From Candidatus Omnitrophota bacterium (GTDB lineage Bacteria > Omnitrophota > Gorgyraeia > 2-01-FULL-45-10), in assembly GCA_030695905.1 (NCBI GenBank), contig JAUYOL010000001.1, forward strand, positions 66,023 to 130,022: a stretch of DNA of 64,000 bases. Direction: 5' to 3'. Positions 31,635 through 53,693 of this stretch are shown here, piece by piece. Numbering within the stretch: position 1 is the first letter of the stretch; each line of letters opens with the position of its first letter. Position numbers and translations under genes: made by a program. Below the pieces are notes generated by a model, which had not been told where the DNA came from, did not search any database, and saw nothing but the letters and a program-made list of their open reading frames with translations.

Positions 31635-31853
31635 ATGGAGGATAAAATGTCAAAGATAGGAGCCTCACACATGGATATCGTAAAAAAATTAGAGCTGTAT
31701 CGCTTGGAGAATAAGATTACCCAGCAGGCATTGGCTAAAGAGCTTGACGTAGCCTTTTCTACTGTCAGTAGGTGGTTTAACGGCAAGACAGTTCCCAGCA
31801 AAATTCAGCAGTATCATGTAGAAAAGTATCTGAGGAAGAAGGTGGGAGTATGA
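31635..31853 (+). CDS. XRE-family HTH regulator
   Basis: ITQQALAKELDVAFSTVSRWFNG HTH_3 motif. Confidence 0.7.
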   Translation: MEDKMSKIGASHMDIVKKLELYRLENKITQQALAKELDVAFSTVSRWFNGKTVPSKIQQYHVEKYLRKKVGV

Positions 31854-33205
31854 AATTCACAGAAAGCGAAATCGTAGAGCTCAAAACATCGACATCAGAG
31901 CTCAAAGAGGCGATCATTTCATTGGGGGCCATGTTGAACAAGCATGGCAAGGGCACAGTTTATTTCGGCATCGGTGATAATGGTGCCGTTTTGGGACAAC
32001 AGATCGGCAAATCAACCATAAAAGATGTTTCAAAAGCCATCAGTGATTGGATTGAACCCAAGGTTTATCCTGATATTCAGGCCAAGAAAATACAAGGCAA
32101 GGACTGTATTGTTGTTAAAGCCAGCGGACATGATGTCGTGTATTCGGCCCGCGGACGATACTATTTACGGATGGGAGAGGAAGATAAGAAACTTTCGGTT
32201 GATGAACTAAGGCATCTGGTTGAAAAGAAAAATAACTATGCCTATTCATGGGGTGCTGAGCTTTCTAATTTTTCACTATCAAAGGTTAGCGTTGCGACGG
32301 TTAAGAAGTTTGTTGAGAAAGGCCGCAAGGCCGGACGTATTGAATACGCTTATGATTCGGCGCATAACGTCCTTAATAAAATTCACCTACTCAAGGGTAA
32401 AAGATTGCTTAACGCGGGTCGGGCGCTATTTTGTGAAGACAGTGGTGTTGAAGTTCAAGCGGCTGTCTTTGCCGGTAAAGATAAAACGACATTCGTCGAT
32501 ATTCAGAGTTTTCGCGGGCCTCTTTTTAGTTTGATCGAACGGTGCGAAGTTTACGCCAAAGAACACATTAACTGGCGCGCTGATCTTTCCGGTAGCACAA
32601 GGGTGGAAATCCCGGAGGTTCCCGTCCGTGCTATGAAGGAAGCTATTATCAATTCCCTTTGCCACAGAGATTTTTATAATCCTAAAACGAACGAGATCGC
32701 TATTTATCGAGATAGGATCGAAATTTATAACCCCGGCCAGTTTCCTTTTGACCATGATCCGGACGAGTTCATCGCAGGTCATGGTAAAAGCTATCCCAGA
32801 AACCCACTGATTGCGGAAGCTTTTTATCTGGCTAAGGATATTGAGCGGTGGGGGTCAGGCTTGCGGCGTATCAAGGAAGAATGCGATGCCGCGGGTGTGA
32901 AGGTTGCCTTCGAGAAGGTATCTACCGGCTTTCAGGTGACGTTTTATCGGTCAGAAGCCGACACTACCCCTCAAAAGGGCGGAGAAACTGGGGAAAAAAC
33001 TAGGGTAGAAACTAGGGTAGAAACTAGGGTAGAAATAATCAAAATTATGAAAGAAAATCCTCGCGTTACAGTAGGAGATATTGCGAAGGCGACGGGATTG
33101 ACCATAAAAGGCGTTGAGTGGAACATCAAGGATCTTAAGCAGAAAGGCTTGATTAAGCGTATCGGACCTAATAAGGGCGGCCATTGGGAAGTGGTGACGC
33201 AATAA
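31850..33205 (+). CDS. AlbA_2 (Schlafen-like divergent AAA)/HATPase_c_4 protein with C-terminal wHTH
   Basis: N-terminal ESEIVELKTS...GKGTVYFGIGDNG pattern of the AlbA_2 domain. C-terminal HTH. Internal TRVE x3 repeat. Confidence 0.55.
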   Translation: MKFTESEIVELKTSTSELKEAIISLGAMLNKHGKGTVYFGIGDNGAVLGQQIGKSTIKDVSKAISDWIEPKVYPDIQAKKIQGKDCIVVKASGHDVVYSARGRYYLRMGEEDKKLSVDELRHLVEKKNNYAYSWGAELSNFSLSKVSVATVKKFVEKGRKAGRIEYAYDSAHNVLNKIHLLKGKRLLNAGRALFCEDSGVEVQAAVFAGKDKTTFVDIQSFRGPLFSLIERCEVYAKEHINWRADLSGSTRVEIPEVPVRAMKEAIINSLCHRDFYNPKTNEIAIYRDRIEIYNPGQFPFDHDPDEFIAGHGKSYPRNPLIAEAFYLAKDIERWGSGLRRIKEECDAAGVKVAFEKVSTGFQVTFYRSEADTTPQKGGETGEKTRVETRVETRVEIIKIMKENPRVTVGDIAKATGLTIKGVEWNIKDLKQKGLIKRIGPNKGGHWEVVTQ

Positions 33206-35189: not shown

Positions 35190-36725
35190 ATGGCAAAAAA
35201 TAAGAATACAAATGGTGATTTGAACTTTGAGCCGAAGCTGTGGCAGACGGCTGATAAGATGCGTAATAACATGGACGCTGCCGAATATAAGCATGTGGTG
35301 TTAGGGCTTATCTTCCTTAAATATATATCAGATGCCTTCAGTGAGCTTTATCAGAAATTAGCTGGTACCAAAGGCGCGGACGCTGAGGATCCGGACGAAT
35401 ACAGGGCCGAAAACGTATTCTACGTCCCAAAAAAGGCCCGATGGGATTATCTGCAGAAAAACGCGAAACAGCCCACCATTGGCAAGTTTATTGATGATGC
35501 AATGGATGAAATCGAGAAGGATAACTCCACCCTGAAAGGCGTTCTTCCTAAAAACTATGCCCGGCCGGCCCTTGATAAACAGCGTCTCGGAGAACTCATC
35601 GACCTTATTGGGACAATTGGCCTTGGTGACAAAGAAAATCGAAGCAAGGACATCTTGGGCCGTGTATATGAGTATTTCCTGGGCCAATTTGCGGATGCGG
35701 AGGGCAAGAAAGGCGGACAATTCTATACTCCGCGCAGTATAGTGCGCTTGCTTGTCGAAATGCTCGAGCCATATAAAGGTCGGGTATTTGATCCATGCTG
35801 CGGATCGGGCGGCATGTTCGTCCAAGGCGAGAAATTTGTGCAGATACATGGTGGCCGAATTGGCGATATTGCCGTATATGGACAGGAATCAAACCAAACA
35901 ACATGGCGTCTTTGCAAAATGAATCTTGCTATTCGTGGTATCGATGCCAACATCGCATGGAACAACGAAGGCAGCTTCTTAAATGACGCTCACAAGGACC
36001 TTAAGGCCGACTTTGTCATCGCTAACCCTCCGTTTAACGACAGCGACTGGAAGGGCGAACTTTTACGCGAAGATATTCGCTGGAAATATGGGACGCCACC
36101 TATGGGCAATGCAAACTTTGCATGGGTTCAACACTTCATTCATCATCTTTCACCCACAGGGCTGGCTGGCTTTGTCTTGGCTAATGGCGCTATGTCGTCT
36201 AACGCTTCAGGTGAAGGCGATATCAGAAAAAGTATCATAGAAGCAGATATCGTGGATTGTATGGTGGCCCTACCCTCACAGCTTTTCTATAACACTATGA
36301 TACCGGCATGTCTTTGGTTTATCGTGCGTGATAAGAAAAATCACAAATTCAGAGATCGACGCGGTGAAACACTTTTTATCGACGCTCGCAATATGGGCGC
36401 CATGATCGACCGCAGGCACCGCGAACTTACGGACGACGATATTACCAAGGTCGTTGGCACATATCATGCTTGGCGTAGCAAGGGTGGTAAATATAAGGAT
36501 ATAGCCGGATTCTGCAAATCAGCGAAACTATCAGAAATTCAAAAGCATGGCCACATTCTCACCCCGGGCCGTTATGTGGGGGCTGCTGAGGTTGCGGAGG
36601 ACGATGAGGTATTTGAAAATAAGATGAAGCGTCTCACGGGTGAGTTGTCAGAGCAGTTTAAACAATCGGATAAGCTTGAGGCAGAGATCAAAAAGAATCT
36701 CAAAGGCTTAGGATATGAAATTTGA
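35190..36725 (+). CDS. hsdM: type I restriction-modification N6-adenine methyltransferase subunit
   Basis: HsdM N-terminal domain. Catalytic NPPFN. SAM motif [10 protein letters not shown]. Confidence 0.9.
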
Positions 36726-38955: not shown

Positions 38956-40416
38956 ATGGTGAAAAGTTCTTGGACTTCAGATGATACAAAAACATTAGAT
39001 ATTTTACTGGATTACCAAAATTCTCGAATAGACGCCAATGAGAAATCATCGCAGGAAGAAATAAGAAAGTTATTATTAAAGACAGAAGATGTCATTGACC
39101 TTGCTAATAGCATAATCGCTACTAAAGGGCTTTTGCGAGGAGAAAGAATAATTATTGTTAAAGAAGATGGCAATTCTATAGTCCTAGAAGGCAATCGCAG
39201 AACTTGTGCTTGCCAACTATTACTAAGCCCAGAATTAATTCCAAAAGAATTTAGAACAAAATTCCCTATTTGTCATGACGGAGGGATAAAAAAAGAACTA
39301 GAGCATTTAAAATCTGATATTGCGCCAGATAGATTGGCAGCGGAAATTACTATTACCAAGAGGCATACTGAACCGGGAGTTTCGCAATGGACTCCCATTG
39401 CGAAACAAAGAAGAATTACGCGTCTTGTTGAGGCAAGGAGATCTATTGAAGAGTTAATGTCTGAATTTGGAATGACACGGTCAAACATTTTGAAAACTTT
39501 GAAAGATTATCATATTTTTCAATATGCAAAAAATCTTTCCATTTGGAACAAGGTTGAAAAAGATATTTTGAACGATCCAACTCTCTCAATCAATCCTTTC
39601 ACTCGGTTTTTTGATTTAAAGGGTGTTAAGAAAGCCTTGGAATTGAAACATAAAGAAACTGGCGAATTGGAAATCGAGATAAAAAAAGAACTTTTTGACA
39701 AAATCATAGCTTTTATTGCCCGCGAATTTTTAATTCCCGATAAAGGCACAAGTAAGCTTGGTGCAAATACTCGCACAACGCCAGAAGAGTTGTTTCAAAG
39801 TATTTCTTCACATGATAAAGATATAAGAGCATTTCTAAAAAAGAAGCTAAAATTGGATAATTTGAAGAATAAGGAAAAAGCTAAATCTGGGGCCGAATCA
39901 GCAGAACAAACAGGTACGGCTAGGACTTCAGGTGCAACAGCTTCTACGCAAACATCGGCAAAGTCTGGAAAGTTCTTTGAAAATCTTCCCTGTCCTTTAA
40001 AAGATAACCAGCTATTGTTAGTTGTGAATGAAATATCGGATATAAATTATAAGAAATATCGCCTATCAGCAACCTTTCTTGTAAGAGCTTTAGTTGAAAG
40101 AATCTTGAATCATTGCATCGACAAATATGCGCTTAAGAAACAATTGCTAAAGGAGTTTTACACTAAGCGCAAGGGGTGTAAAGGCATAGAACCAGGGCTA
40201 GAGTTTGTGGTTGATTTTTGTATAAAAAATCATGATCAAATGTTCAATGTAAATACAGTACGAAATATTCTAAGAAAATGGAAAGGGGATAAGGATCTAT
40301 TAGATATTATCATTCATGGTCGTTGGGCCAATCCTAGCATTACAAACCTTGAACATTTCGCATCTCTCATTCGACCTACGGTTGAACAAATTCTTAGCGG
40401 GAATGCTTTGAAATGA
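38956..40416 (+). CDS. ParB/Srx-like N-terminal domain protein (486 aa) embedded in RM operon
   Basis: VLEGNRRTCA matches the ParB-N/DGQHR-like DGxxR signature. Low-complexity Ser/Thr/Ala linker. Unknown C-terminal domain. Confidence 0.45.
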   Translation: MVKSSWTSDDTKTLDILLDYQNSRIDANEKSSQEEIRKLLLKTEDVIDLANSIIATKGLLRGERIIIVKEDGNSIVLEGNRRTCACQLLLSPELIPKEFRTKFPICHDGGIKKELEHLKSDIAPDRLAAEITITKRHTEPGVSQWTPIAKQRRITRLVEARRSIEELMSEFGMTRSNILKTLKDYHIFQYAKNLSIWNKVEKDILNDPTLSINPFTRFFDLKGVKKALELKHKETGELEIEIKKELFDKIIAFIAREFLIPDKGTSKLGANTRTTPEELFQSISSHDKDIRAFLKKKLKLDNLKNKEKAKSGAESAEQTGTARTSGATASTQTSAKSGKFFENLPCPLKDNQLLLVVNEISDINYKKYRLSATFLVRALVERILNHCIDKYALKKQLLKEFYTKRKGCKGIEPGLEFVVDFCIKNHDQMFNVNTVRNILRKWKGDKDLLDIIIHGRWANPSITNLEHFASLIRPTVEQILSGNALK

Positions 40417-41342
40417 AAATCGAGCAAGAAAATAAAGCTCTGAATAATAAAACAATAACAACCAATCTGAGCCCATTAAGGTATCCAGGTTCAAAGCGGA
40501 AGATAGCTTTGTATATTAGAGAAATCCTTCAACATAACAAGCTAACTCCCGATCTCCTTGTGGAACCATTTGTCGGTGGCGGTAGCATTTCTCTATTTTT
40601 TATTGCCAATAATTTTGTAAAAAAAATTATTATTTCAGATAAAGATAGATTAATTAGCAGTTTTTGGAAGGTAGTTTTTTCTAATCCAGACAGCATCAAC
40701 CGTTTCATTCAACATGTAAAAATTAATCTTAAAAATTTTGATAAGTATAAAAATATCGCAAAAGATACTGAGAATTATAATGAAACTGAATTAGCAAAAG
40801 CATGCATTTTTCTCAACAGAACTAGCTTCTCAGGCGTTTTAGCTAATCCTGCTGGCCCTCTTGGCGGAAGAGAGCAGAGGTCGGACTACAAAATCGATTG
40901 CCGCTTTAATAGAAAAACCATCGTAAAGAAAATTAGTTGCATCGCATCTTTTAAGAGCAGGGTTATTGTTCGTAATGGCCACTGGAAAGATATAATAAAG
41001 TATGCAGAAGGTTGGCGCAAGGATAATAAGGGGTATAAAAAAACATTCATATACCTAGATCCGCCTTTCTATTTAAAAGGAGAAAGTTTATATAGAAATT
41101 ATTTTGAAACCAATCAACACGAAGAACTATCTAAAGAATTGGAGAAAATAACCTGCCCATGGATTTTAAGTTATGATAATGTCTTACAAGTTAGAAAACT
41201 ATATGAGAATTTTAAAAACATCGTTTATATCGACATGCCATATTCAATTAATTCGCATGCTAATAGAATTGAAAAAGAATTGATAATTACTAACTTAAGT
41301 TTGCCCAAGGTAAACGAAATGAGCTTTCATAATAAGCAATGA
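40413..41342 (+). CDS. D12-class (Dam-like) N6-adenine DNA methyltransferase
   Basis: RYPGSKRK ... EPFVGGGS (motif I) and YLDPPF (motif IV). Confidence 0.7.
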
Positions 41343-44300
41343 AAAAAATTACAGAATATGAAATCGAGCAGGTCGCCTTAGATATCCTTTCAGAGCTTAA
41401 ATATAAGGTTATCTACGGGCCGGATATTGCCCCGGATGGGCCGAAGCCAGAGAGACAGAGTTATGCCGATATTGTCCTACTTGTTAGGCTTCGCGAGGCA
41501 ATAAATCAGTTTAATCCTAATATTCCTGCCGAAGCAAAGGATGAAGCAATAAAGCGGATATTACGGACTGAAAGCCCTGACCTTGTAATAAATAATCATC
41601 GCTTTCACAAGATGCTTGTTGATGGTGTTGATGTAGAATATCGCAAAGACGGCCGGATTACCGGCGATAAGGTATGGCTCTTCGACTTTGCAAATCCGAA
41701 TAATAATGAATTCTTAGCGATTAACCAGTTTACCATTATCGAAAATAATATTAATCGCAGGCCTGATATTATTCTCTTTGTGAATGGTCTGCCGATCGTG
41801 GTAATAGAGCTAAAAAATCCGGCTGATGAAAATGCCACTACCTTAACCGCTTTCAAACAATTCCAAACGTATAAACTCCAGATACCCTCTCTTTTTAAGT
41901 TTAACGAGATTTTAGTCGCAAGCGATGGTATTGACGCAAAAGCTGGGACGATAACCTCTGACTGGGAGCGATTCTTGCCATGGAAGACGATCGATGGCAC
42001 CGAGAAGGCATCAAAGGTAATGCCACAGATAGAGGTTTTATTAAAAGGCATGTTTAATAAAAAGGTTTTGCTCGATCTTATCCGGTACTTCGTCGTCTTC
42101 GAGCAGGATAAGGATACTAAAGACAATACGGTTAAAATTTCAAAGAAGATTGCGGCTTATCATCAATATCATGCCGTTAATAAAGCCATCGACGCTACTA
42201 TTAAGGCATCCCGAGCCAGGGGTGATAAGCGTTGCGGTGTAGTTTGGCACACACAGGGTTCGGGCAAAAGCCTTATTATGGCCTTTTATACGGGTAAACT
42301 TGTTTTGAGTTTGGACAATCCCACAGTAGTTGTCTTAACCGATAGAAATGACTTAGATGATCAGCTCTTCGGCACATTCTCCCGATGCAATGAATTGTTG
42401 CGACAAGCGCCAGCGCAAGCAGAATCTCGTGCAAAACTGCAAGAATATCTTAAAGTTTCATCCGGCGGCATTGTATTTACCACTATTCAAAAATTCTTCC
42501 CGGAAGAAAAAGGCGACCAATACCCTCTTCTATCCGAACGTCGTAATATAATTGTCATCGCCGATGAGGCTCACAGAAGCCAGTATGATTTTATTGATGG
42601 TTTTGCCAAGCACATGCGCGACGCCCTACCAAATGCTTCATTTATCGGATTTACTGGCACACCCATAGAACGACACGATCGTAACACTATTGCTGTCTTT
42701 GGTGATTACATTGATATTTATGATATTGAGCAGGCAGTTAACGATGGCGCTACAGTTCGGATATACTACGAGAGCCGGCTTGCTATGCTTGAGCTAAAGG
42801 ATGAGGAACGGCCTAAGATTGATCCCGAGTTTGAAGAAGTCACTGAAGGCGAAGAGTTCAAGAAAAAGGAAAAGCTGAAGACCAGATGGGCCCGGCTTGA
42901 AGCCATTGTTGGAAGTGAAAAGCGTATTAAGCAGATCGCCAAAGATATAGTGAATCATTTCGAAAGCCGTCTTACGGCTGTCGAGGGTAAAGGTATGATT
43001 GTCTGTATGAGCCGGCGAATAGCAATTGATCTTCATAATGAAATTATTAAGCTAAGACCTCAATGGTATAACAAAGATGATGACAAGGGCTTCCTAAAGG
43101 TTATTATGACGGGCTCTGCCAGCGACCCTGTCGAGTGGCAAGAACATATCAGAAATAAACAAAGGCGCAGGGATATTGGTGATCGTATGAAAGATCCAAG
43201 CGATCCGCTGAAATTAGCAATCGTGCGGGATATGTGGCTTACAGGATTTGATGCACCGTCGCTTCATACAATGTATATAGACAAGCCAATGCGGGGCCAC
43301 GGTCTTATGCAAGCTATTGCGCGCGTAAATCGTGTATTTAAGGATAAGCCGGGTGGTCTTGTAGTCGATTATTTAGGTATAGCCGATGATTTAAAGCGTG
43401 CGCTCGCAGAGTATACAGAAAGCGGCGGTAAAGGCAAGCCAGCGTTTAAGCAAGAAGACGCGGTGGCTTTAATGCTCGAGAAATATGAAGTCGTTTGTGG
43501 GATGTTTGATAAATTCAATTATAAAAAATTCTTTCCCGCCCCTGTAAAAGACAAGATGTCTATTATAACACTGGCACAGGAGCACATATTAAAGCAGAAA
43601 AATGGCAAGGAGCGATTGATGGCCTATGTGACACAACTCTCGCAGGCCTTCGCGCTTTCGGTACCGCATAAAGAGGCCTTAAAAATAAGGGATGACGTGG
43701 GATTCTTTCAAGCAGTCCGGGCCCGGCTGGCAAAGTATGAGACCGGCACAGGCAAAACCGAAGAAGATCTCGACTCGGCAATAAAGCAAATTATCTCAAA
43801 GGCTATCATTTCGGACAAAGTAATTGATATATTCGAAGCAGCCGGTCTTAAGAAGCCGGACATTTCTATTCTGTCGGACGAATTTTTGGCCGAAGTTAAA
43901 GGGATGCCACATAAGAACCTTGCCTTCGAACTTTTAAAGAAATTACTCAATGATGAAATCAGGACGAGATCTCGCAAAAATCTTATTCAGGGCCGATCAT
44001 TCGCTGAAATGCTCGAGAAGGCCATTAAGAAGTACCAGAATAAGGCCATAGAAGCAGCCAAAGTCATCGAAGAACTGATTGAGCTTGCCAAAAAGATGCG
44101 CGAGGCCGATAAGCGTGGCGAAGATCTCGGGCTGAATGAGGACGAGATTGCGTTTTACGATGCTCTGGAGGTTAATGACAGCGCTGTAAAGGTATTAGGA
44201 GACGAGATCTTAAAAACTATTGCCCGGGAGCTCGTTCAGACGGTTCGTAATAATGTTAGTATCGACTGGACCTTAAAGGAAAGCATTCAGGCAAAGCTAC

Positions 44301-44932
44301 GGGTTATGGTAAAAAGGATATTACGCAAGCACGGCTACCCTCCGGATAAGGAAAAGAAAGCCACCGAGACTGTTTTAGAGCAGGCTACCTTATTAGGCAA
44401 GGACTGGGCCGAGAAACCAGAAGAATCCGTAGAAAAATCAGATCTATTCTTTAGCGATGTGATCGATAAGGCGACTTTCGAAGAGGATTATTTGCCTATT
44501 TATGATTTGCAGGCGGTTGCGACATCGTTCCGAGAGCAAACCACACCAACAATTAAAGGCTGGAAGCCGATAAAGGGCCGTAATATTAATAAAGATATGT
44601 TTATCGCTCAGGTTGTCGGTAAATCTATGGAGCCAACGATACAAGATGGCAGCTGGTGTATTTTCCGTTTTGATCGTGGCGGTTCGCGCAATGGTTTGGT
44701 AGTGCTTGCCGAATCGCGGTTAGTATCTGATCCGGAAACGAGTCAAAACTTTACCATTAAGCGCTACAAGAGCGAAAAAGAAGATCTCGGCCAGGGCCAG
44801 TGGAGACATAAACGTATTACCCTATCGCCGGACAATAAGACTTTTAACGATATTGTGCTTGAAAACGTTGCCGGTGACGATTTTCGGATTGTAGCTGAAT
44901 TTATAGAGATATTGAAGATTAGGAGTATTTGA
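41339..44932 (+). CDS. hsdR: type I restriction enzyme R subunit fused to C-terminal LexA/S24-like peptidase domain
   Basis: Res-III/DEAD motifs (GSGKS, DEAH) and helicase C. The last ~147 aa (44489-44932) carry GKSMEP ... KRYK ... the S24 Ser/Lys dyad pattern. Confidence 0.8.
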
Positions 44933-45013
44933 CCAAGGGTGATTAGATAGGTGCCTTGAAAGATAGTGGGAAACGTATCGAGTAAAATATTTGTAGCCAA
45001 AAGGTATATTTTC

Positions 45014-46768
45014 ATGACAATGGTTGCAGTATGTCTTTTCAAAGAAGGTGGCGTATTAATCTCCGATTCTCGGGCAACCAAGGATAATAATGGTAAATAC
45101 GCATTTAGCGATACTCTTCAAAAAATTCTCTACATTCGCAAAAATATTGCTCTTTCATATGCAGGTGACGTTCAAATTGCCGGAGATGTTGCAAGAGAAG
45201 TACGGTTAAAGGTTATCGGAGATGACAATCTTAAAGAGCCGCAAACCCTAGCGGCGAAAATACCGACAATTGCCACCCTATCATATCTCAAATATGTATT
45301 TATTAGAGGTAGGCCCTGCGCTGTATATTTACTGCTGGCAGGAGTTGATTCTTCGGGAAAAACATATGCATGGGTTTTTAAGTCACCCGGTTTTAAACCA
45401 ATAAAGATTGAAAATGGTTTCGATGTAATTGGTTCGGGAGAGGTAGTTGTTCCATATTTGGAAAAAAGTTATAAAAATATAGATAGCTCCCATAACGATC
45501 TTAAGTCTAAAGCAGATGCATTAATAGTCGGGCTTGAGAGTGAGCTACAAAAACACGATGTAAACACAGTCGGTGGACTTTTTCAGGTTGTTCTTCTTAC
45601 CCCCGAAGGAATACGTCCCCTTCGTTATGGGTTCATGGACTTAGATCCACTTAAAAGTGGTGATGCAAAAAGTATGGAATTGATCAAGGGGAAATGGACA
45701 CAGACAAATGAGGCAACGCGAGAAAAAGTAGAGCTTTTAGAACCATCTAAACTTGTCACCAATGTTTTTAAAGAGACGCAATTTCATGAATATGCGCCAC
45801 CCAATCAGGATAAAAAAATTCCAAAATGGTATTCATACTATTTTATTACATGTTCAAAAGTCAAAAGGGATATTACTACGACAGAATTTCAGGGTGTATT
45901 AACACAAATAGCCAGTTTAAGATATCCGGCCACTATACCCATTATTGCATCCATGGGATTTTGGGGTACTGCCGGTGAGAATCAAATAGAATTGCGAGTG
46001 GAAAAAGACGGAAAACAAGAAACGATTTATTCCAAAAAAATCCATACAGAATATTTACCCGAAATAGTTGAATTGGATGCAGAAATAAAGCTTGTTATTA
46101 GTTCGCCAGGGCCCGCATTCTTAGAGTTCTTAATTAATAAGCAGGTTCTTGCTAGAAAAGCTCTTTATTTTGGCAATCTCAACGGCATTCCAAAATCCGA
46201 TGGGGATAAAGAAGAATTTCTCAGAGAGCGTCAATCACAGCTCACAGAGGAACACCGACAACTTTCGGATGCTTTTTTGAATGACAAAAATTCTGTTACT
46301 GAATATTTCGTCTTATGTGAGAACTGCATTCATGAGGGAAATGTAATTAAATTTATCAATGAAATGAAAGCGGTTTATTGGAAATCATACCCGCTACCTT
46401 TACGGGTATATATTGCTAGTGCAATCAGAATGCCAAAAGGCAAACATAGTATCCGCATAGAGTTAGTGAATGCGGCGACTCGATATAACTCAAACATAAC
46501 AAACACTACTGTAGAAAACACATCCGATTGCTTAGTTACTCCTATCCATGGCGAAATGGTTGTGAATATACCAGAGCCCGGTATTTATTTTTTCAATCTA
46601 TACGTTGATGGCAAATTTATTACAAGTGCGCTTCTTCCAGCGGAGCTCTCGAAAGCCAAATATTCTTACAGTCTGACAGATGAGGGAGAAAAAATGGTTG
46701 AGTCTGGAGAGTTAATAATTTTGCCAAGACGGTCTATTTTAGAAAGCGAAATAAAGAATAACAAATAA
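45014..46768 (+). CDS. HslV/proteasome-beta-like Ntn-hydrolase domain fused to ~400-aa unknown C-terminal domain
   Basis: N-terminal MTMVAV ... ISDSRAT ... K ... SYAGDVQIAGD ... IGSGE aligns with HslV Thr1/Asp17/Lys33/GSGG. No adjacent HslU. Confidence 0.55.
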   Translation: MTMVAVCLFKEGGVLISDSRATKDNNGKYAFSDTLQKILYIRKNIALSYAGDVQIAGDVAREVRLKVIGDDNLKEPQTLAAKIPTIATLSYLKYVFIRGRPCAVYLLLAGVDSSGKTYAWVFKSPGFKPIKIENGFDVIGSGEVVVPYLEKSYKNIDSSHNDLKSKADALIVGLESELQKHDVNTVGGLFQVVLLTPEGIRPLRYGFMDLDPLKSGDAKSMELIKGKWTQTNEATREKVELLEPSKLVTNVFKETQFHEYAPPNQDKKIPKWYSYYFITCSKVKRDITTTEFQGVLTQIASLRYPATIPIIASMGFWGTAGENQIELRVEKDGKQETIYSKKIHTEYLPEIVELDAEIKLVISSPGPAFLEFLINKQVLARKALYFGNLNGIPKSDGDKEEFLRERQSQLTEEHRQLSDAFLNDKNSVTEYFVLCENCIHEGNVIKFINEMKAVYWKSYPLPLRVYIASAIRMPKGKHSIRIELVNAATRYNSNITNTTVENTSDCLVTPIHGEMVVNIPEPGIYFFNLYVDGKFITSALLPAELSKAKYSYSLTDEGEKMVESGELIILPRRSILESEIKNNK

Positions 46769-47056
46769 AATCACCCCCCCCAATCAACTTTTCTTATGCG
46801 CGCATTTATATACAGCGAACGATGCATAATAATTTAAATGTTTACGGGTCCTTGGAAGGCGGGTCGGGCGCGGCACAAATATTTATTAAAATAGAGACAG
46901 CGCCGTTTTTCAAAAATAAATAGTCGCTGGCCCTATTTTCAGTTAATGAAGTCTAACCAATGGGAATAGTGACCGGACGCTATTCGGACACCGGTAATTG
47001 CATGTTATATATTCACAAAGTCAGGTTAGTAGTGTATAATATAATTGAGGTGAAAA

Positions 47057-47755
47057 ATGGGCAAGGTATACAAAAATGCTCCATTAGTTGAAGCGGTTTT
47101 TGAAATGCGCTTTCCCGCTGATCTAAACATAGAATGCGCCAGATCAAATTTCTATGAGAGCATAAAAAAGGATTTTCCTAACATCTTTGTCCCGAATGCT
47201 CAATTCGGACAGGCGCTTGCGCTACAACCATATGAGTTTAAGAGCGCGGATCATAAGAAAGTCATACGTTTTTCAATAAATAGCTTCGCTTTCCATACGA
47301 GTGATTACTCAGGCGGGTTTGAGCTATTCGAAGAAGAGTGTCTTAAATACATTAATCTGTTCATAAAATTCTTTAAAATCTCTACATTGAACCGCATGGG
47401 TCTTCGTTATATTAACAGAATAGCTATTATGCGCAAAGATGGCTTAATACCAATCGGTGAATACTTAAACTTTGGTTTTGAACTGCCGGACAGCATGTCA
47501 AGCGATCCAGAGATATTTCATGCGTTGCTTATTAACAAAGTGGGTGATGGTAAGTTGCGAACTCTTATTCAATATCAAGAAGTACCGCCCAAGAACGAAG
47601 TAATACTGTTAGATTTCGATTATTACTACGAGGACAAAATAAAGGCTATAGATTTCCCTAAATATCTTACGCAGGCGCATAAGCATATAAAAGAGGATGT
47701 GTTCAAGAAATTGATAAGCGAAAATTATATGAAAGCGTTAGAGGCTAAAGGATGA
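47057..47755 (+). CDS. TIGR04255-like conserved hypothetical protein
   Basis: N-terminus YKNAPLVEAVFEMRFP is the signature I recall for that family. First gene of three overlapping genes. Confidence 0.45.
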   Translation: MGKVYKNAPLVEAVFEMRFPADLNIECARSNFYESIKKDFPNIFVPNAQFGQALALQPYEFKSADHKKVIRFSINSFAFHTSDYSGGFELFEEECLKYINLFIKFFKISTLNRMGLRYINRIAIMRKDGLIPIGEYLNFGFELPDSMSSDPEIFHALLINKVGDGKLRTLIQYQEVPPKNEVILLDFDYYYEDKIKAIDFPKYLTQAHKHIKEDVFKKLISENYMKALEAKG

Positions 47756-48264
47756 TAAAGACAATATCTGCTACTTTTCACGGCGAAGACTATACGAAAT
47801 TAGCAAGAAATCTATCTTTCAGGGTAGAAGAAAATGCTGTGCCTGCAGGGGTTAAGTTGGATAGAAATGTCTTTGAAGAGGTGTTGGATTTAATGCGCGT
47901 TGAATATCAGAAGCCTGATGACGTGATGCCTGCTAAGCCAGATGCGCTGTCATTGGACTGTATTGTACCCGACGCAGTTTTTACGGTAAATCAGAGCGTT
48001 TTTACATATCCTATTTTTTCATTACCACACTGCCAACTAAAGCACCCTATACAGATTGTCATTGAAGCAAAAGAGGACGGTAATGTTATTGTTTGGAGCG
48101 ATGAGTTCGAGTTGTCGGGCTTGGGCGGAACAAAGGAAGAAGCGCTTGCGGATTTCAGTTCTTTTGTATTCTCTGATCGTAATTCATTAAGAAAGATACC
48201 GACGGATAAACTTAGTGATGGCGCGAAAGATTTATTGCGTAGATATGAAGAATATTTAGAATAG
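47752..48264 (+). CDS. hypothetical protein (operon partner)
   Basis: ATGA overlap with the upstream gene. Confidence 0.4.
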   Translation: MIKTISATFHGEDYTKLARNLSFRVEENAVPAGVKLDRNVFEEVLDLMRVEYQKPDDVMPAKPDALSLDCIVPDAVFTVNQSVFTYPIFSLPHCQLKHPIQIVIEAKEDGNVIVWSDEFELSGLGGTKEEALADFSSFVFSDRNSLRKIPTDKLSDGAKDLLRRYEEYLE

Positions 48265-49313: not shown

Positions 49314-51689
49314 ATGGAAGTCGAGAGAAGAGTAGAGAAGAGATGGATCAGCGAGAATATTCCTGCCGAATTAAAGGATCTGCCGATCTGGGTTGGTTTT
49401 AAGTTTATTCCGCAGGAAGGTCAAAAGCCCCGCAAAGAGCCGTTCAATGCCGCGACCGGCGGCAAAGCCTGTTCGAATAATCCAAAAACATGGCGGTCAT
49501 TTGATGAGGTTATCGGAAGGGCCGAATCAATGCATTTTAATGCCATTGGGATTGGGCTTTCTGAGCCGTACGTTGGCGTAGACCTCGACCATTCCGTTGT
49601 TGATGGAGATATCCAGCCATGGGCCCAAAAGATCATATCGATCATCGATAGTTATACCGAATTCTCTCCCAGCAAAACAGGTGTTCATATTCTTTGTAAA
49701 GGTACGCTTCAAAAGGGACGCAAATTCAGCGCACTTAATATCGAAATGTATCAGAAGACCCGGTTTTTTACGGTTACCGGAGACGTTGTGCCTGAATGCA
49801 GGTCAGAGATCATGGATCGAAGCGGGCAGATCACGAAATTATTCGAAGAGTGTGAGCAGAAGGACAATGAGAAGAGGCAATCAAAATCAATCCTCGACCG
49901 CATATTGAAAAGCCAAGACGCGGAGAAGTTTCAGAAGCTTTTCTCGGGCCAGTGGCAGGATTTATATCCTTCTCAGTCTGAGGCAGACCTTGCGTTGTGC
50001 AACAAGCTGGCCTTTTGGACCGGCAAGGATCCGGCGCTTATGGATTCGCTCTTCCGTAAATCCGGCCTTATGAGGCTCAAGTGGGATGAGAAGCATTTCG
50101 GTGACGGCAGGACATACGGCCAGTCGGTAATAGAGAAAGCGATTAGCGGTTGCCGAGATGTTTATAGCGGCTCTCAAGAGATAACCACAAAACATAAACT
50201 TACACAGGGCGAGATCATCACCCGTGATTGTGAAGAGAAGATTACGGATTTCTTCAGGGATCAGCATGGCAATACTTTCGTCGTGCTTCCGGTTGAGGGC
50301 CACCTTGAGGTATGCCCGACATCAAGCGGTCGCTTTAGGAATTGGAAAGCAACACGTTTTCGTGAGAGGTTCGGTGTCCCGCCAAAAAACGAAGCCATTA
50401 TTCAGGCGCGGATTCAAGTGGAGGCGCGCTGTGGGTGCGGCAAGCAGGTGGAATTATTTAATCGTATAGGCTGGCATGAAGGCAAAATCTATTATGACCT
50501 TACTACTCCTGATTATCGTGGTGTAGCTATTGATGAAAACGGCTGGAATGTCGTCTTCTTACCGCCAATATTCAGGCGTTACCAGCATCAAGCACAGCAG
50601 GTCATTCCGGTTAATGACGGAGATCCGAAAGAGATCTTACGCTTTTGTAATGTGGGTCCGGATGATCACTGCCTTTTTATGGTCGCGATCGCGTCTTTCT
50701 TCATTCCGAACATCCCACATGTGATCATAAGCCAGACCGGCGAGCAGGGTTCCGGCAAGTCCAACAATTCCCGCAAGATCAAGGGTTTGGGCGACCCATC
50801 ACGCGTTATGCTCATCTCGACTCCAAAGGACTTGGAGCAGGCGCAGATGACGGCCGAGAAGCACTGGATCAGCACTTTCGACAATATCTCCAAAATTCAT
50901 GAATGGTTTAGCGACTTCCTGTGTCGTGGCGTTACCGGCGAGGGCGACATGAAGCGCAGTCTTTATACCAATGACGATGAGTTTATCCGGTCATACCGCC
51001 GTTGTTTTGTCTTAAACGGCATCGGCGTTTCAATGTGGCGCGGGGATTTGCTCGACCGCGCGGTTATCTTCGATATACCGGTCCTAAAGGATGCCCGGCC
51101 GGAGCGAGTCATGGATGACGAATGGCAAAAAGCCTTGCCCGGGATCCTCGGAGGCTTCTTTACAGCTATTTCAAAGGCTATGAGAACAGTTTCGCAAGTT
51201 ACCGGCCATGAGAAGTTCCGCATGGCCGATTTTGCCCAGTGGGGCGGCGCTCTGGCTCAAGAGCTCGGCTATTCGAGAGACGAATTCTTTAAGAAATATC
51301 AGGAATCCGTCAAAGGTAAATGGCAGGACACAGCCGAGGACAGCGTCTTTGCCAAAAAGATAATGGATCTTATGGATAGGCGCAACGGCTATTGGGAGGG
51401 TTCAGCGGCAGAGCTTTTGCATGAGATAACGCCGGATAGCGGTGAAGAGAAGGGCATACCCAAAACAGCCAAGTGGCTTTCAACTGAGCTGGTGCGTATC
51501 GCTCCGGTCATGCGTAATGTTGGGGTTGATATTGTGAAGAATGAGAAGCGCGAGCCGGGCACCGGCAGGCGTATCTTTATACTTAAAAGAACAGGGCCAA
51601 AGAGCTGTGAGGATCGGTGTGAGCAGAGTGTGAGCAGCGGCTTGTTTTGTGAGGATCGCGTGGGGGTAGACAGTGATCGGCCGTTCTGA
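49314..51689 (+). CDS. prim-pol (bifunctional primase/polymerase)-type replication protein with P-loop NTPase domain
   Basis: N-terminal LPIWVGFK ... VDLDH ... SPSKTGVHIL prim-pol pattern. GEQGSGKS Walker A in the middle. Confidence 0.65.
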   Translation: MEVERRVEKRWISENIPAELKDLPIWVGFKFIPQEGQKPRKEPFNAATGGKACSNNPKTWRSFDEVIGRAESMHFNAIGIGLSEPYVGVDLDHSVVDGDIQPWAQKIISIIDSYTEFSPSKTGVHILCKGTLQKGRKFSALNIEMYQKTRFFTVTGDVVPECRSEIMDRSGQITKLFEECEQKDNEKRQSKSILDRILKSQDAEKFQKLFSGQWQDLYPSQSEADLALCNKLAFWTGKDPALMDSLFRKSGLMRLKWDEKHFGDGRTYGQSVIEKAISGCRDVYSGSQEITTKHKLTQGEIITRDCEEKITDFFRDQHGNTFVVLPVEGHLEVCPTSSGRFRNWKATRFRERFGVPPKNEAIIQARIQVEARCGCGKQVELFNRIGWHEGKIYYDLTTPDYRGVAIDENGWNVVFLPPIFRRYQHQAQQVIPVNDGDPKEILRFCNVGPDDHCLFMVAIASFFIPNIPHVIISQTGEQGSGKSNNSRKIKGLGDPSRVMLISTPKDLEQAQMTAEKHWISTFDNISKIHEWFSDFLCRGVTGEGDMKRSLYTNDDEFIRSYRRCFVLNGIGVSMWRGDLLDRAVIFDIPVLKDARPERVMDDEWQKALPGILGGFFTAISKAMRTVSQVTGHEKFRMADFAQWGGALAQELGYSRDEFFKKYQESVKGKWQDTAEDSVFAKKIMDLMDRRNGYWEGSAAELLHEITPDSGEEKGIPKTAKWLSTELVRIAPVMRNVGVDIVKNEKREPGTGRRIFILKRTGPKSCEDRCEQSVSSGLFCEDRVGVDSDRPF

Positions 51690-51905
51690 AAGCGTGAGCT
51701 TGCTCACGAACCTCACACTTGCTCACAGCCCTGCTCACAGGGAGAACCTACGGATTATCAATGGGTTAGGCGATTTTGTGAGGTTTGTGAGGCTATTTCT
51801 CTAAAGTGTATAAGATAAAAATATTTAATATAAATAGGTGTATTGCTCACACAAAGGACGCAGGTATAAGGAGAGGGATTTTTGCCTCACAATGCTCACA
51901 ACGAA
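51606..51905. repeat. array of >12 TGTGAG/CTCACA hexamer copies
   Basis: tgtgaggatcgg, tgtgagcag x2 ... ttgctcacga, ttgctcacag, ctgctcacag, tgtgaggtttgtgagg, ttgctcacac, gcctcacaatgctcacaa. Confidence 0.5.
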
Positions 51906-52213
51906 AGGAGAAGTGGTCATGGATAAGGCATGGAATAAGGCTTGTAAAAGGATGGCGGAGCAGGGTAACCGAGAGGTTAAGGCGCACGGCAGGCGATGGG
52001 ACAAGAAGCTTAAAAGGTTGGCAAGTAAGTGGAACGCATCGGCTTCGGGGTCCCTCCAGGGGGGTGTCGGCCGAGGGTCAGGCGAGGCGAAGTCTGTGAG
52101 TGATGTCAGTTTTTGAAAATGTCGTGTCGTGGTCGCATAGGCTGTTTTTGTGCTCAAGGCCACGACAAAACCGGACATTTGCGATGTCCGAATGTCCTAT
52201 TGCGTAATAAACT

Positions 52214-52402
52214 ATGACAAAATTATTTTCACCTCAAGAATTGTCCGAAGTTTTAAATATAAGCATCGAGACCGTCTATGCGTGGACGTCTCAGAAGAGG
52301 ATCCCGTATATCAAAATGGGCAGGCTTGTTCGGTTTAATATGGATGAGGTGAATAAGTGGCTTGAAAGGCAGAGGGTAATGCCATATGAGGGCGAGGGAT
52401 GA
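52214..52402 (+). CDS. xis: excisionase (AlpA/Xis HTH family)
   Basis: LSEVLNISIETVYAWTSQKRIPYIKMGRLVRF. Confidence 0.7.
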   Translation: MTKLFSPQELSEVLNISIETVYAWTSQKRIPYIKMGRLVRFNMDEVNKWLERQRVMPYEGEG

Positions 52403-52512
52403 GGGAAAAATGGGACAGTCCCAATCAACGCTTAATAGATGCTTTTGGGACAGTCCCTATTTTTCCTTAACTACTTGCCAACTCGCAGAAAATATGGCTA
52501 TATACACATACT

Positions 52513-53616
52513 ATGATATATAAACGAGGCAAAACATGGTACATAGGTTACTCCGCTAACGGGCGGTTGATGCGGGAAGCGGTTGGTGAGTCGCGGAAAT
52601 TCGCCGAGCTTGTTCTTGGCAAGAAACGGGCCGAGGTCAGAGAGGGCCGTTTCCTCGATGTCAAGAAACACGCGAAGATCAAGTTTGAGGATTTCGCTAA
52701 GACATTTGTGGAGCTCCATTCAAAGGTTAATAAAAGGCCCAGAGTCGCCAAGAGAGACGAACAACTCATAAAACGCCTGTCCGGGCATTTCGCGGGCAAG
52801 TATCTGTACGAGATAACATCCAAGCAGATAGAAGAATATAAAAAAGTCCGTAAAGAGACTAAGCTCAAGGATAAGTTTATTGCCGCGGCGACCGTAAACA
52901 GAGAATTGGCATGTCTCAAGTGCATGTTTAATAAAGCGATCGAATGGGGCAAGGCAGATGAGAACCCTGTCCGTAAGGTGAAGTTATTTAAAGAGAATAA
53001 TAAACGCTTGAGGTTTCTTGAAAGAGAAGAGATACCAAAGTTCTTGGATAGCGCGGCCCCGCATCTAAAGCCGATCCTGATAGTCGCATTATTTACCGGT
53101 ATGCGTAAGTCGGAGATCCTGACTCTCCAATGGAAGAATATCAACTTTGGGCAGGGCATAATATATTTGCTCCACACTAAGAATGGCGAGCGCAGAGAAG
53201 TGCTGATGAACGATATCGTCAAAAAGACACTTATTGCCGTTCCTAAAAATCCCAGCAGCCCATATATATTCTGTCACGAGGACGGTAAGCCCTACCTGAA
53301 TGTCCGAAAATCTTTTGACGCAGTTTTGAAAAAATGTGATATAATTGACTTCAAATTCCACGATCTGAGGCACACATTCGCCTCGCACCTAGTTATGTTC
53401 GGTATAGACATAAAGACAGTGCAGGAGCTGATGGGCCATAAGTCCATTGAGATGACGCTCCGCTATTCGCATCTATCGCCGGATCACAAAAAGAGGGCCG
53501 TGGAGATCTTAGGAAATAGAATTAGCACAAATATAGCACAAACGCCTAAAACGGCAAATACAAGCGAGATAGGCGAATCGCCTAACTCGTTGAAAGAATT
53601 AGAGTTAGTGCATTAA
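52513..53616 (+). CDS. int: tyrosine-type site-specific integrase
   Basis: C-terminal catalytic motifs HDLRHTFAS and LMGHKSIEMTLRYSHL. Ends 2 nt before tRNA-Thr. Confidence 0.9.
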   Translation: MIYKRGKTWYIGYSANGRLMREAVGESRKFAELVLGKKRAEVREGRFLDVKKHAKIKFEDFAKTFVELHSKVNKRPRVAKRDEQLIKRLSGHFAGKYLYEITSKQIEEYKKVRKETKLKDKFIAAATVNRELACLKCMFNKAIEWGKADENPVRKVKLFKENNKRLRFLEREEIPKFLDSAAPHLKPILIVALFTGMRKSEILTLQWKNINFGQGIIYLLHTKNGERREVLMNDIVKKTLIAVPKNPSSPYIFCHEDGKPYLNVRKSFDAVLKKCDIIDFKFHDLRHTFASHLVMFGIDIKTVQELMGHKSIEMTLRYSHLSPDHKKRAVEILGNRISTNIAQTPKTANTSEIGESPNSLKELELVH

Positions 53617-53617
53617 T

Positions 53618-53693
53618 GCTGGCGTAGCTCAGTTGGTAGAGCAGCGGTTTCGTAAACCGCAGGTCGATGGTTCAACTCCATTCGCCAGCTCCA
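53618..53693 (+). tRNA. tRNA-Thr (anticodon CGT); attR within 5' half
   Basis: Cloverleaf with loop ttCGTaa, T-loop TTCAACT and CCA. Confidence 0.85.

Follow-up and report, generated by a model that had tools for sequence, protein, structure and literature searches.

What might a protease of the proteasome fold be doing as cargo of a bacterial defence island, with no unfoldase ATPase encoded beside it? Proteasome-fold enzymes are usually viewed as barrel-forming housekeeping proteases that need such ATPases. The question is raised by a stretch of 64,000 nucleotides (nt) from a Candidatus Omnitrophota bacterium (assembly GCA_030695905.1, contig JAUYOL010000001.1; hereafter the window, to which all coordinates refer unless they carry a locus name), in which a gene at 45014-46768 on the + strand, the target of this analysis, encodes a predicted proteasome beta-type N-terminal nucleophile (Ntn) hydrolase joined to a large C-terminal module. 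Homologous loci and proteins found elsewhere are designated L0xx and P0xxx, respectively. That the protein is a proteasome-type threonine peptidase, a claim which can be taken alone, is very probable. What it does is answered here more tentatively: it may be a protease that works independently of an ATPase, is gated by its C-terminal module, and serves defence or conflict between genetic elements.

The gene and the predicted segments of its product are as follows.

45014-46768, + strand: target gene, with an ATG start and a stop codon at 46766-46768; 584 amino acids (aa) plus stop
45014-45019, + strand: initiator Met and Thr nucleophile (ATG-ACA); Thr2, the counterpart of mature Thr1, falls on residue 1 when the domain is aligned to mature 20S beta chains
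45014-45649, + strand: proteasome beta-like Ntn hydrolase domain, residues 1-212, as assigned by PF00227, a PDB profile search, Foldseek and hhalign
45065-45067, 45122-45124, 45164-45166 and 45434-45436, + strand: codons of the catalytic residues D18, K37, G51 and S141, respectively
45650-45799, + strand: beta-hairpin subdomain, residues 213-262, which packs against the Ntn domain in the AlphaFold2 (AF2) model and has an invariant G226-x-W228-x-Q230
45815-46189, + strand: immunoglobulin (Ig)-like beta-sandwich 1 (DUF6941-like repeat 1), residues 268-392, from the AF2 model and hhalign
46190-46294, + strand: helical linker, residues 393-427, with helices at 396-415 and 421-425 in the model
46295-46657, + strand: Ig-like beta-sandwich 2 (DUF6941, PF22091), residues 428-548
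46658-46765, + strand: conserved tail, residues 549-584, in which the named residues of S551-Y552-x-L554 ... G565-E566-L ... L570 ... R573 are nearly invariant

A longer product that starts at an in-frame GTG at 44966 is mechanically possible, but the ATG at 45014 is preferred because the N-terminus that it gives (MTMVA) is conserved among homologs as MT(M/I)V/I-A. In the window and in ~30 distinct homolog loci that include the 5' end of the gene, the start codon lies immediately 5' of the nucleophilic Thr, exactly 16 residues ahead of the invariant Asp; this start is ATG throughout, except for a GTG in L037-39, and Ser replaces the Thr in L032. A Shine-Dalgarno-like purine run is frequent upstream of the start among the homolog loci, and in the window AAGG lies 9 nt upstream of it. 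Because the start codon directly precedes the nucleophile in every locus examined, the family appears to have no propeptide.

Profile, sequence and structure comparisons agree in placing the N-terminal domain among proteasome subunits. Pfam Proteasome (PF00227) matches residues 4-164 of the target with 34.3 bits, well over its gathering score of 22.4 (E = 2.4e-8), and precomputed Pfam annotation lists the same family for most homologs. A phmmer search of the PDB recovers alpha and beta subunits of archaeal proteasomes (~1e-4), and a profile built from residues 1-212 ranks active 20S beta2 and beta1 chains best (1.9e-9) with alpha subunits at ~4e-7 and no HslV among the 60 best PDB matches. Judged by their scores, the PF00227 and PDB sequence matches are far beyond chance. 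Foldseek against the PDB retrieves hundreds of 20S beta chains (E down to ~5e-9; target template modelling scores of 0.6-0.74). In hhalign, the domain aligns with Thermoplasma acidophilum beta at a probability of 80% (E = 1.3e-5; 172 columns) and with Escherichia coli HslV at 2.5%, over the first 60 columns only; both reference sequences were entered by hand, and the scores themselves were computed.

The alignment with T. acidophilum beta places D18 on Glu17, R20 on Arg19, K37 on Lys33, G51 on Gly47 and G140-S141-G142 on Gly128-Ser129-Gly130. A proposed equivalence of D168 to Asp166 was dropped, as hhalign instead sets a conserved (T/S)-V-G-G, (T)VGG in the target, on Ser169-Gly170-Gly171. Residue conservation was assessed in an alignment of 43 of the 51 relatives described below, in which T2, D18, S19, R20, D33, Q36, K37, G51, G140-S141-G142 and V186-G187-G188-x-x-Q191 are invariant or nearly so. 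The catalytic landmarks named in a sequence-only reading of the gene (Thr after Met, the Asp17 of DSRAT, a Lys in the TLQK region, SYAGDVQIAGD and IGSGE) are all present, and their key residues are among these conserved positions. That reading had also called the domain HslV/proteasome-like; the proteasome part of the label is borne out by the above-threshold PF00227 match and the 20S fold, and the HslV part is imprecise, given the disparity between the two hhalign scores and the best PDB matches, which are 20S beta and alpha subunits. The AF2 model shows the alpha-beta-beta-alpha sandwich of Ntn hydrolases with helices H1-H4, of which H1 and H2 span residues 53-69 and 76-98, and it has no insertion between S3 and S4. 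As judged from sequence and model together, the N-terminal domain is a propeptide-less Ntn hydrolase of the proteasome beta type with a complete catalytic set. Sequence comparison sets it nearer to 20S beta, and to stand-alone proteasome homologs that bear inserts, than to HslV.

The C-terminal two thirds of the protein, in which no recognisable domain had been seen at first, contain two homologous sandwiches of the DUF6941 type according to the AF2 model and hhalign. The model, built on the 43-sequence alignment, has a predicted local distance difference test score (pLDDT) of 92.2 and a predicted template modelling score (pTM) of 0.86. It draws a hairpin subdomain at 218-260 (strands at 218-224, 227-232 and 237-240), a first sandwich at 270-390, a helical linker at 396-425, and a second sandwich at 428-545. 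When aligned with each other by hhalign, the two sandwiches score a probability of 98.7% (E = 2.3e-16), and by this comparison they are a tandem duplication. DUF6941 scores 25.4 bits on sandwich 2, just under its gathering score of 27 in this protein, and precomputed Pfam annotation assigns it to about one homolog in two; the family profile also picks up stand-alone DUF6941 proteins, at ~1e-5 to 1e-3. Modelled without the Ntn domain, the sandwiches are still confident, and the pLDDT of the hairpin falls from ~90 to 50-84, which argues that the hairpin is structurally part of the Ntn domain. This region is best described as ~370 aa comprising a hairpin, two predicted DUF6941-type Ig-like sandwiches and a conserved tail.

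This module has evolved much like the catalytic domain. Mean pairwise identity is 0.41 in the Ntn domain, 0.33 in the hairpin, 0.36 in sandwich 1, 0.23 in the linker (the least conserved segment), 0.41 in sandwich 2, and 0.47 in the tail, the highest of all segments. The ratio of nonsynonymous to synonymous substitution rates (dN/dS), calculated against an 85%-identical copy at L009, is 0.10 in the protease part and 0.10 in the C-terminal part. Given these identities and ratios, the module is an integral part of the enzyme rather than a fast-evolving appendage. In addition, C280 and C435 are invariant and occupy equivalent positions in the two sandwiches, and with H478, D419 and E544 (invariant or nearly so) they might form a metal or ligand site.

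The fusion to a large extra region, remarked on from the sequence of this one gene, characterizes the family: all full-length homologs carry the same family-specific module. Among 5.8 billion proteins searched, 51 relatives were identified at 34-99% identity, and almost all of them have 573-600 aa and an equal architecture. In an exhaustive HMMER search of 1.84 billion cluster representatives with the C-terminal profile, only 120 proteins matched; the 93 strongest had the same architecture (with the module always starting at residue 170-180) or were fragments of it, and none of the representatives joined the module to another N-terminal domain. Genome matches lie in metagenome-assembled genomes (MAGs) of Omnitrophota (two), Binatia, Planctomycetales (Planctomycetota) and Elusimicrobiota, and a protein match lies in a Saccharimonadales (Saccharimonadia) MAG; the closest genome match is L009, an Omnitrophota MAG with 85% DNA identity to window positions 41564-46769, a similarity that by itself would suggest, without proving, an origin of the window in that phylum. 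No relatives were found in the phage and plasmid sets IMG/VR, INPHARED, PLSDB and PHROGs. At ~90-120 clusters, the family is rare, and it is patchily scattered, with an accessory, horizontally mobile distribution. One copy (L036:221-2418) is cut after ~250 codons by an inserted 455-aa transposase-like open reading frame (ORF) and has an intact relative in L026; its 250-aa form was rejected as a variant architecture, being a copy disrupted by an insertion sequence.

The weak tail of the HMMER search contains two groups of proteins. The first consists of stand-alone proteasome homologs of 250-360 aa with Thr1 or Ser1 and large insertions, which have the (S/T)VGGLxQ motif and the terminal GxWxQ hairpin of the target family.

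P0132-P0156, P0173 and P0176; L047:8001-9023; L050:3013-3813: short proteasome homologs with the SVGGLxQ motif and the GxWxQ hairpin

Among these short relatives, P0176 sits in an island of Dpd DNA-modification genes that also holds a methylase, DUF5677 and a recombinase, and another adjoins an 8xMP membrane protein. The second group consists of stand-alone DUF6941 proteins of 124-177 aa. In L040-L045 (e.g. L043:1325-2698) such a protein (124-127 aa) comes first in a conserved cassette of three genes, the others encoding a family-less protein of 146-147 aa and a DUF7689 protein of 197 aa; the 147-aa neighbor was ruled out as a mini-proteasome of the PPH-like kind by an hhalign probability of 2.4%.

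In the window, the target is the last gene of a same-strand (+) array that is headed by hsdM and makes up a type I restriction-modification (RM) operon, with a two-gene PD-Lambda-5 system embedded between hsdS and hsdR (38956-41342).

35190-36725, + strand: hsdM, the start of the array, followed by an ORF of 287 aa
37594-38937, + strand: hsdS
38956-40416, + strand: PD-Lambda-5 A, 486 aa (E = 1.9e-31)
40413-41342, + strand: PD-Lambda-5 B, a D12-class methyltransferase (E = 2.9e-81)
41339-44932, + strand: hsdR, 1197 aa, with a C-terminal S24 peptidase-like domain (PADLOC REase_I, 1176.7 bits; Pfam domains)
47057-48264, downstream of the target: a TIGR04255-family gene (232 aa) that overlaps a family-less gene of 170 aa

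The placement of the target directly after hsdR in a defence locus, as first read from the sequence, is thus seen in detail: only 81 nt separate it from the end of hsdR at 44932, and no promoter- or terminator-like site was found on the + strand within this gap, so the two genes are probably co-transcribed. The block of hsdR and target is collinear with L009 at 85% identity, and the similarity stops exactly at the target stop codon. The claim that no HslU-like ATPase is nearby holds as well, since no AAA+ or HslU-type gene was found among the ORFs of ~31.8-53.6 kilobases (kb) scanned against Pfam or NCBIfam. No second proteasome-family gene was found in the window neighborhood, and no RNA partner, repeats or small ORFs were detected around the target. 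The HsdR C-terminus itself carries a LexA/UmuD-type Peptidase_S24 domain (residues 1066-1187, ~44534-44899) with GKSM and IKR motifs, a fusion that is also kept in the Omnitrophota MAG of L009; a domain of the self-cleaving type is unusual in this position.

Downstream of the target, an 11/12 sigma70-like promoter at 47012-47040 precedes the TIGR04255 pair. This pair is regarded as a separate cassette because related contigs diverge from the window at 46769 and 46940, the latter being the point at which the 98%-identical contig L014 parts from it; the slot downstream of the target is variable, since these divergences fall just upstream of the pair. G+C content is 0.34-0.39 across ~37-49 kb and ~0.44 elsewhere in the window. 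Beyond the pair, at 49314-53693, lie a primase-polymerase (NrS-1-like, 791 aa) and then a gene for a tyrosine integrase, only 2 nt from a tRNA-Thr(CGT) that follows it; a second copy of the 3' end of this tRNA, sought to set the ends of the island, was not found in the window. Upstream of the array, at 31850-33205, a 451-aa protein matches PADLOC models for pAgo-associated SIR2-PNTD (E = 7.7e-14) and has a C-terminal winged helix, and it is maybe a further defence-related gene.

A survey of the neighborhoods of homologs, which the sequence-only reading had proposed, shows that they recur in variable regions rich in RM, toxin-antitoxin (TA) and recombinase genes and never, among the loci examined, in an HslU context. 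Genes for RM, TA or recombinase functions were found near at least 11 of ~18 distinct loci, a count made within ~4 genes (recombinases anywhere in a flank of up to 10 kb) and without background control. For example, one copy lies with an RM system that combines a methyltransferase fusion and a helicase-nuclease (type I/IIG-like), a YhcG nuclease, PDDEXK_1 and BrnT/BrnA, and another with Schlafen/AlbA_2, an ImmA-type helix-turn-helix (HTH) protein (HTH-M78), HSP70-TPR, UvrD and DEAD helicases and an SbcCD-like pair. PemK is a neighbor at one locus and a serine recombinase at another, and further neighbors include DUF2326 and DUF2779; an N6_N4 methylase; an integrase with a DUF6036 nucleotidyltransferase and AAA_13; DUF5677; flanking serine recombinases with a PLD-SNF2 helicase; an Eco57I/MmeI-type enzyme; HNH plus a recombinase; and, elsewhere, a transposase and an amidoligase. 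Across 125 neighbors, the commonest Pfam families are RM methylases, HTH, resolvase/recombinase, ResIII/DEAD, integrase, PLD, AAA_21 and HNH, and the commonest PADLOC matches are RM methyltransferases. When the ORFs of 40 loci were clustered by BLAST, all against all, no partner gene was shared beyond near-identical loci, and an AAA+ unfoldase, hslU or second proteasome-family gene is absent from the homolog loci with per-gene annotation. On the contig of P0014, the family copy lies in a small islet (DUF5674, NYN, HTH_17-Fic and several unknowns) which interrupts an operon for acetyl-CoA synthase and carbon monoxide dehydrogenase (CODH/ACS), a clear insertion into housekeeping genes.

Because the family is rare, patchy, single-copy cargo of RM/TA/recombinase islets, and because a type I RM/PD-Lambda-5 operon ends with the target, a conflict protease is the most likely role for this protein. 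In the mechanism that we favor, methionine aminopeptidase would trim the initiator Met and expose Thr1 as the nucleophile, and the enzyme would act without an unfoldase ATPase. The Ig-like module would take over the control of access to the active site that is elsewhere exercised by an alpha ring or HslU, either through docking of a specific protein target or trigger or through formation of a closed oligomer. Once triggered, the protease would cut a phage or host protein in a conflict with phage or other mobile elements. This combined proposal is possible, and somewhat short of an even bet. A defence role taken alone, which is argued from genomic association, likewise stays on the doubtful side of even and is both plausible and testable. 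A more specific version is rather unlikely as it stands: that the gene is a single-gene anti-phage system, in which the tandem DUF6941 of an ATPase-free threonine protease senses a phage or anti-restriction protein and licenses cleavage of a phage or host target by Thr1. To our knowledge, threonine proteases of the proteasome type have not so far been seen among bacterial immune effectors.

Several observations weigh against a function in defence. No PADLOC-DB v2.0 model matches the target (0 families at E <= 0.1), and searches of the literature, on DUF6941 and on defence combined with proteasome homologs, HslV or PF00227, turned up no paper that ties any of these to anti-phage defence. The neighborhood argument is one of association, uncontrolled for background and made without a formal enrichment statistic, and some copies have housekeeping neighbors such as solute-binding proteins and ABC transporters. 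Also, the C-terminal module is conserved like the catalytic domain, with no sign of diversifying selection, and such uniform conservation fits a structural or oligomerization role at least as well as that of a phage sensor. Finally, a proteasome-fold subunit normally gains activity only on assembly into a ring (PMC8665760).

The last two points lead to a different explanation, in which the target is a self-compartmentalizing, ATP-independent general protease like BPH or Anbu, whose Ntn domains form rings, whose Ig-like modules replace alpha subunits as an outer gate or antechamber, and which degrades unfolded or damaged proteins, its presence on mobile DNA being incidental. The dependence of most proteasome-fold subunits on rings and the existence of many new homologs without AAA+ partners (PMC8665760) speak for it, as do the purifying selection on an evenly conserved module, as expected of an assembly interface, and a high pTM that is suggestive of a rigid two-part protomer. 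Extreme rarity and a patchy phyletic spread nevertheless fit an accessory function better than protein quality control, and so does a location in variable islets that also hold RM, TA and recombinase genes, so we consider this explanation unlikely. An intact catalytic set beside a large, conserved, binding-type module could also belong to a monomeric, sequence-specific processing enzyme or transpeptidase that acts on one unlinked cellular or mobile-element protein docked by the Ig-like domains. Connectase provides a precedent for a monomeric proteasome homolog that is a highly specific ligase or protease (PMC7980362; PMC8665760), but it lacks H1/H2 and has a two-helix S3-S4 lid, the target model being the opposite on both counts, and no conserved neighboring substrate gene was found; on balance such an enzyme is improbable.

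The operon of the window invites a third view, that the protein is an accessory of type I restriction which either controls the S24-bearing HsdR (e.g. in restriction alleviation) or is a latent back-up like PrrC, freed when a phage inhibits restriction. The short gap that separates the gene from hsdR and lacks promoter- or terminator-like sites, the joint preservation of hsdR and target at 85% nucleotide identity up to the target stop codon, and the occurrence of an RM enzyme or DNA methyltransferase no more than two genes away at three or more other distinct loci are all in line with it. Most family members are not adjacent to type I RM genes, however, so a dedicated partnership with HsdR cannot be the general function of the family, and the accessory role is very unlikely. 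It is barely credible that the protein is a catalytically dead scaffold which has kept the proteasome fold only: many Ntn-fold proteins are indeed inactive, such as alpha subunits and beta3/4/6/7, yet Thr or Ser directly follows the start codon in every locus, the positions equivalent to Asp17, Arg19, Lys33, Gly47 and Gly-Ser-Gly show little or no variation, and the Ntn domain has a dN/dS of 0.10.

What is new in this family is an undescribed architecture and context, the fold and chemistry being already known. The combination of an intact catalytic center, a fixed Ig-like pair and a setting dominated by RM, TA and recombinase genes offers a functional clue for orphan proteasome homologs. If the target is an immune effector, threonine Ntn proteases would join the serine, cysteine and metallo-proteases known in bacterial immunity, and a new, non-barrel way of gating or regulating the proteasome fold would be revealed. 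Should it turn out to be a self-gated general protease, its structure would still represent a new quaternary solution for this fold. It could also provide a compact, perhaps sequence-specific, protease or ligase tool, as with connectase.

The known systems to which the target can be compared share different parts of these properties. With 20S beta subunits of archaea, actinobacteria and eukaryotes (PF00227), which give its best sequence and structure matches, it has in common the fold and Thr1, Asp(Glu)17, Arg19, Lys33, Gly47 and Gly128-Ser129-Gly130. Unlike them, it has no propeptide, it has no gene for an alpha subunit, a PAN/Mpa/ARC ATPase or a Pup system nearby, and it adds the ~370-aa C-terminal module and is single-copy island cargo. 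Like HslV (ClpQ), it is a bacterial Ntn threonine protease in which Thr comes right after the initiator Met. HslV is a protein of ~175 aa with no additional domains; the target, in contrast, is without hslU and reaches a profile probability of merely 2.5%.

A parallel is given by the 22 new families of proteasome homologs, all without a propeptide and an AAA+ partner, for which "no genomic contexts ... suggestive of a specific function" were reported (Fuchs, Alva and Lupas, 2021; PMC8665760). Like these homologs, the target family is ATPase-less, propeptide-less and patchy, and some of theirs (RPC, DAH, FC4 and 'DGH') have unassigned C-terminal domains (PMC8665760). As in their group II (WPH/PMI), the target family resembles both alpha and beta subunits, and the short proteins nearest to it have large insertions like those of PMI proteins (PMC8665760). 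Compared by description, none of these families has two Ig-like DUF6941 domains; RPC proteins, which also have a C-terminal extension, are proteobacterial and lack helix H2, whereas the target model has H1 and H2 and its family is found in other taxa (PMC8665760). Connectase differs in being an archaeal, monomeric ligase without H1/H2 and with a helical lid between S3 and S4, whereas the target has H1/H2 and no lid, and taxa and context differ as well (PMC8665760). The target may nevertheless be like connectase in being a proteasome-fold enzyme that works outside a barrel and obtains its specificity from extra elements.

A comparison from outside the proteasome family concerns organization rather than chemistry. 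PrrC, of the prr type I RM locus, and effector-sensor fusions of the CapRel type are abortive-infection effectors that are encoded by single genes or embedded in RM loci. The target has no known sequence relationship to them, and a threonine Ntn protease stands in the place of their anticodon nuclease or pyrophosphokinase. What it shares with these systems is an effector domain joined in one polypeptide to a C-terminal recognition or regulatory module and a position in or beside a type I RM operon.

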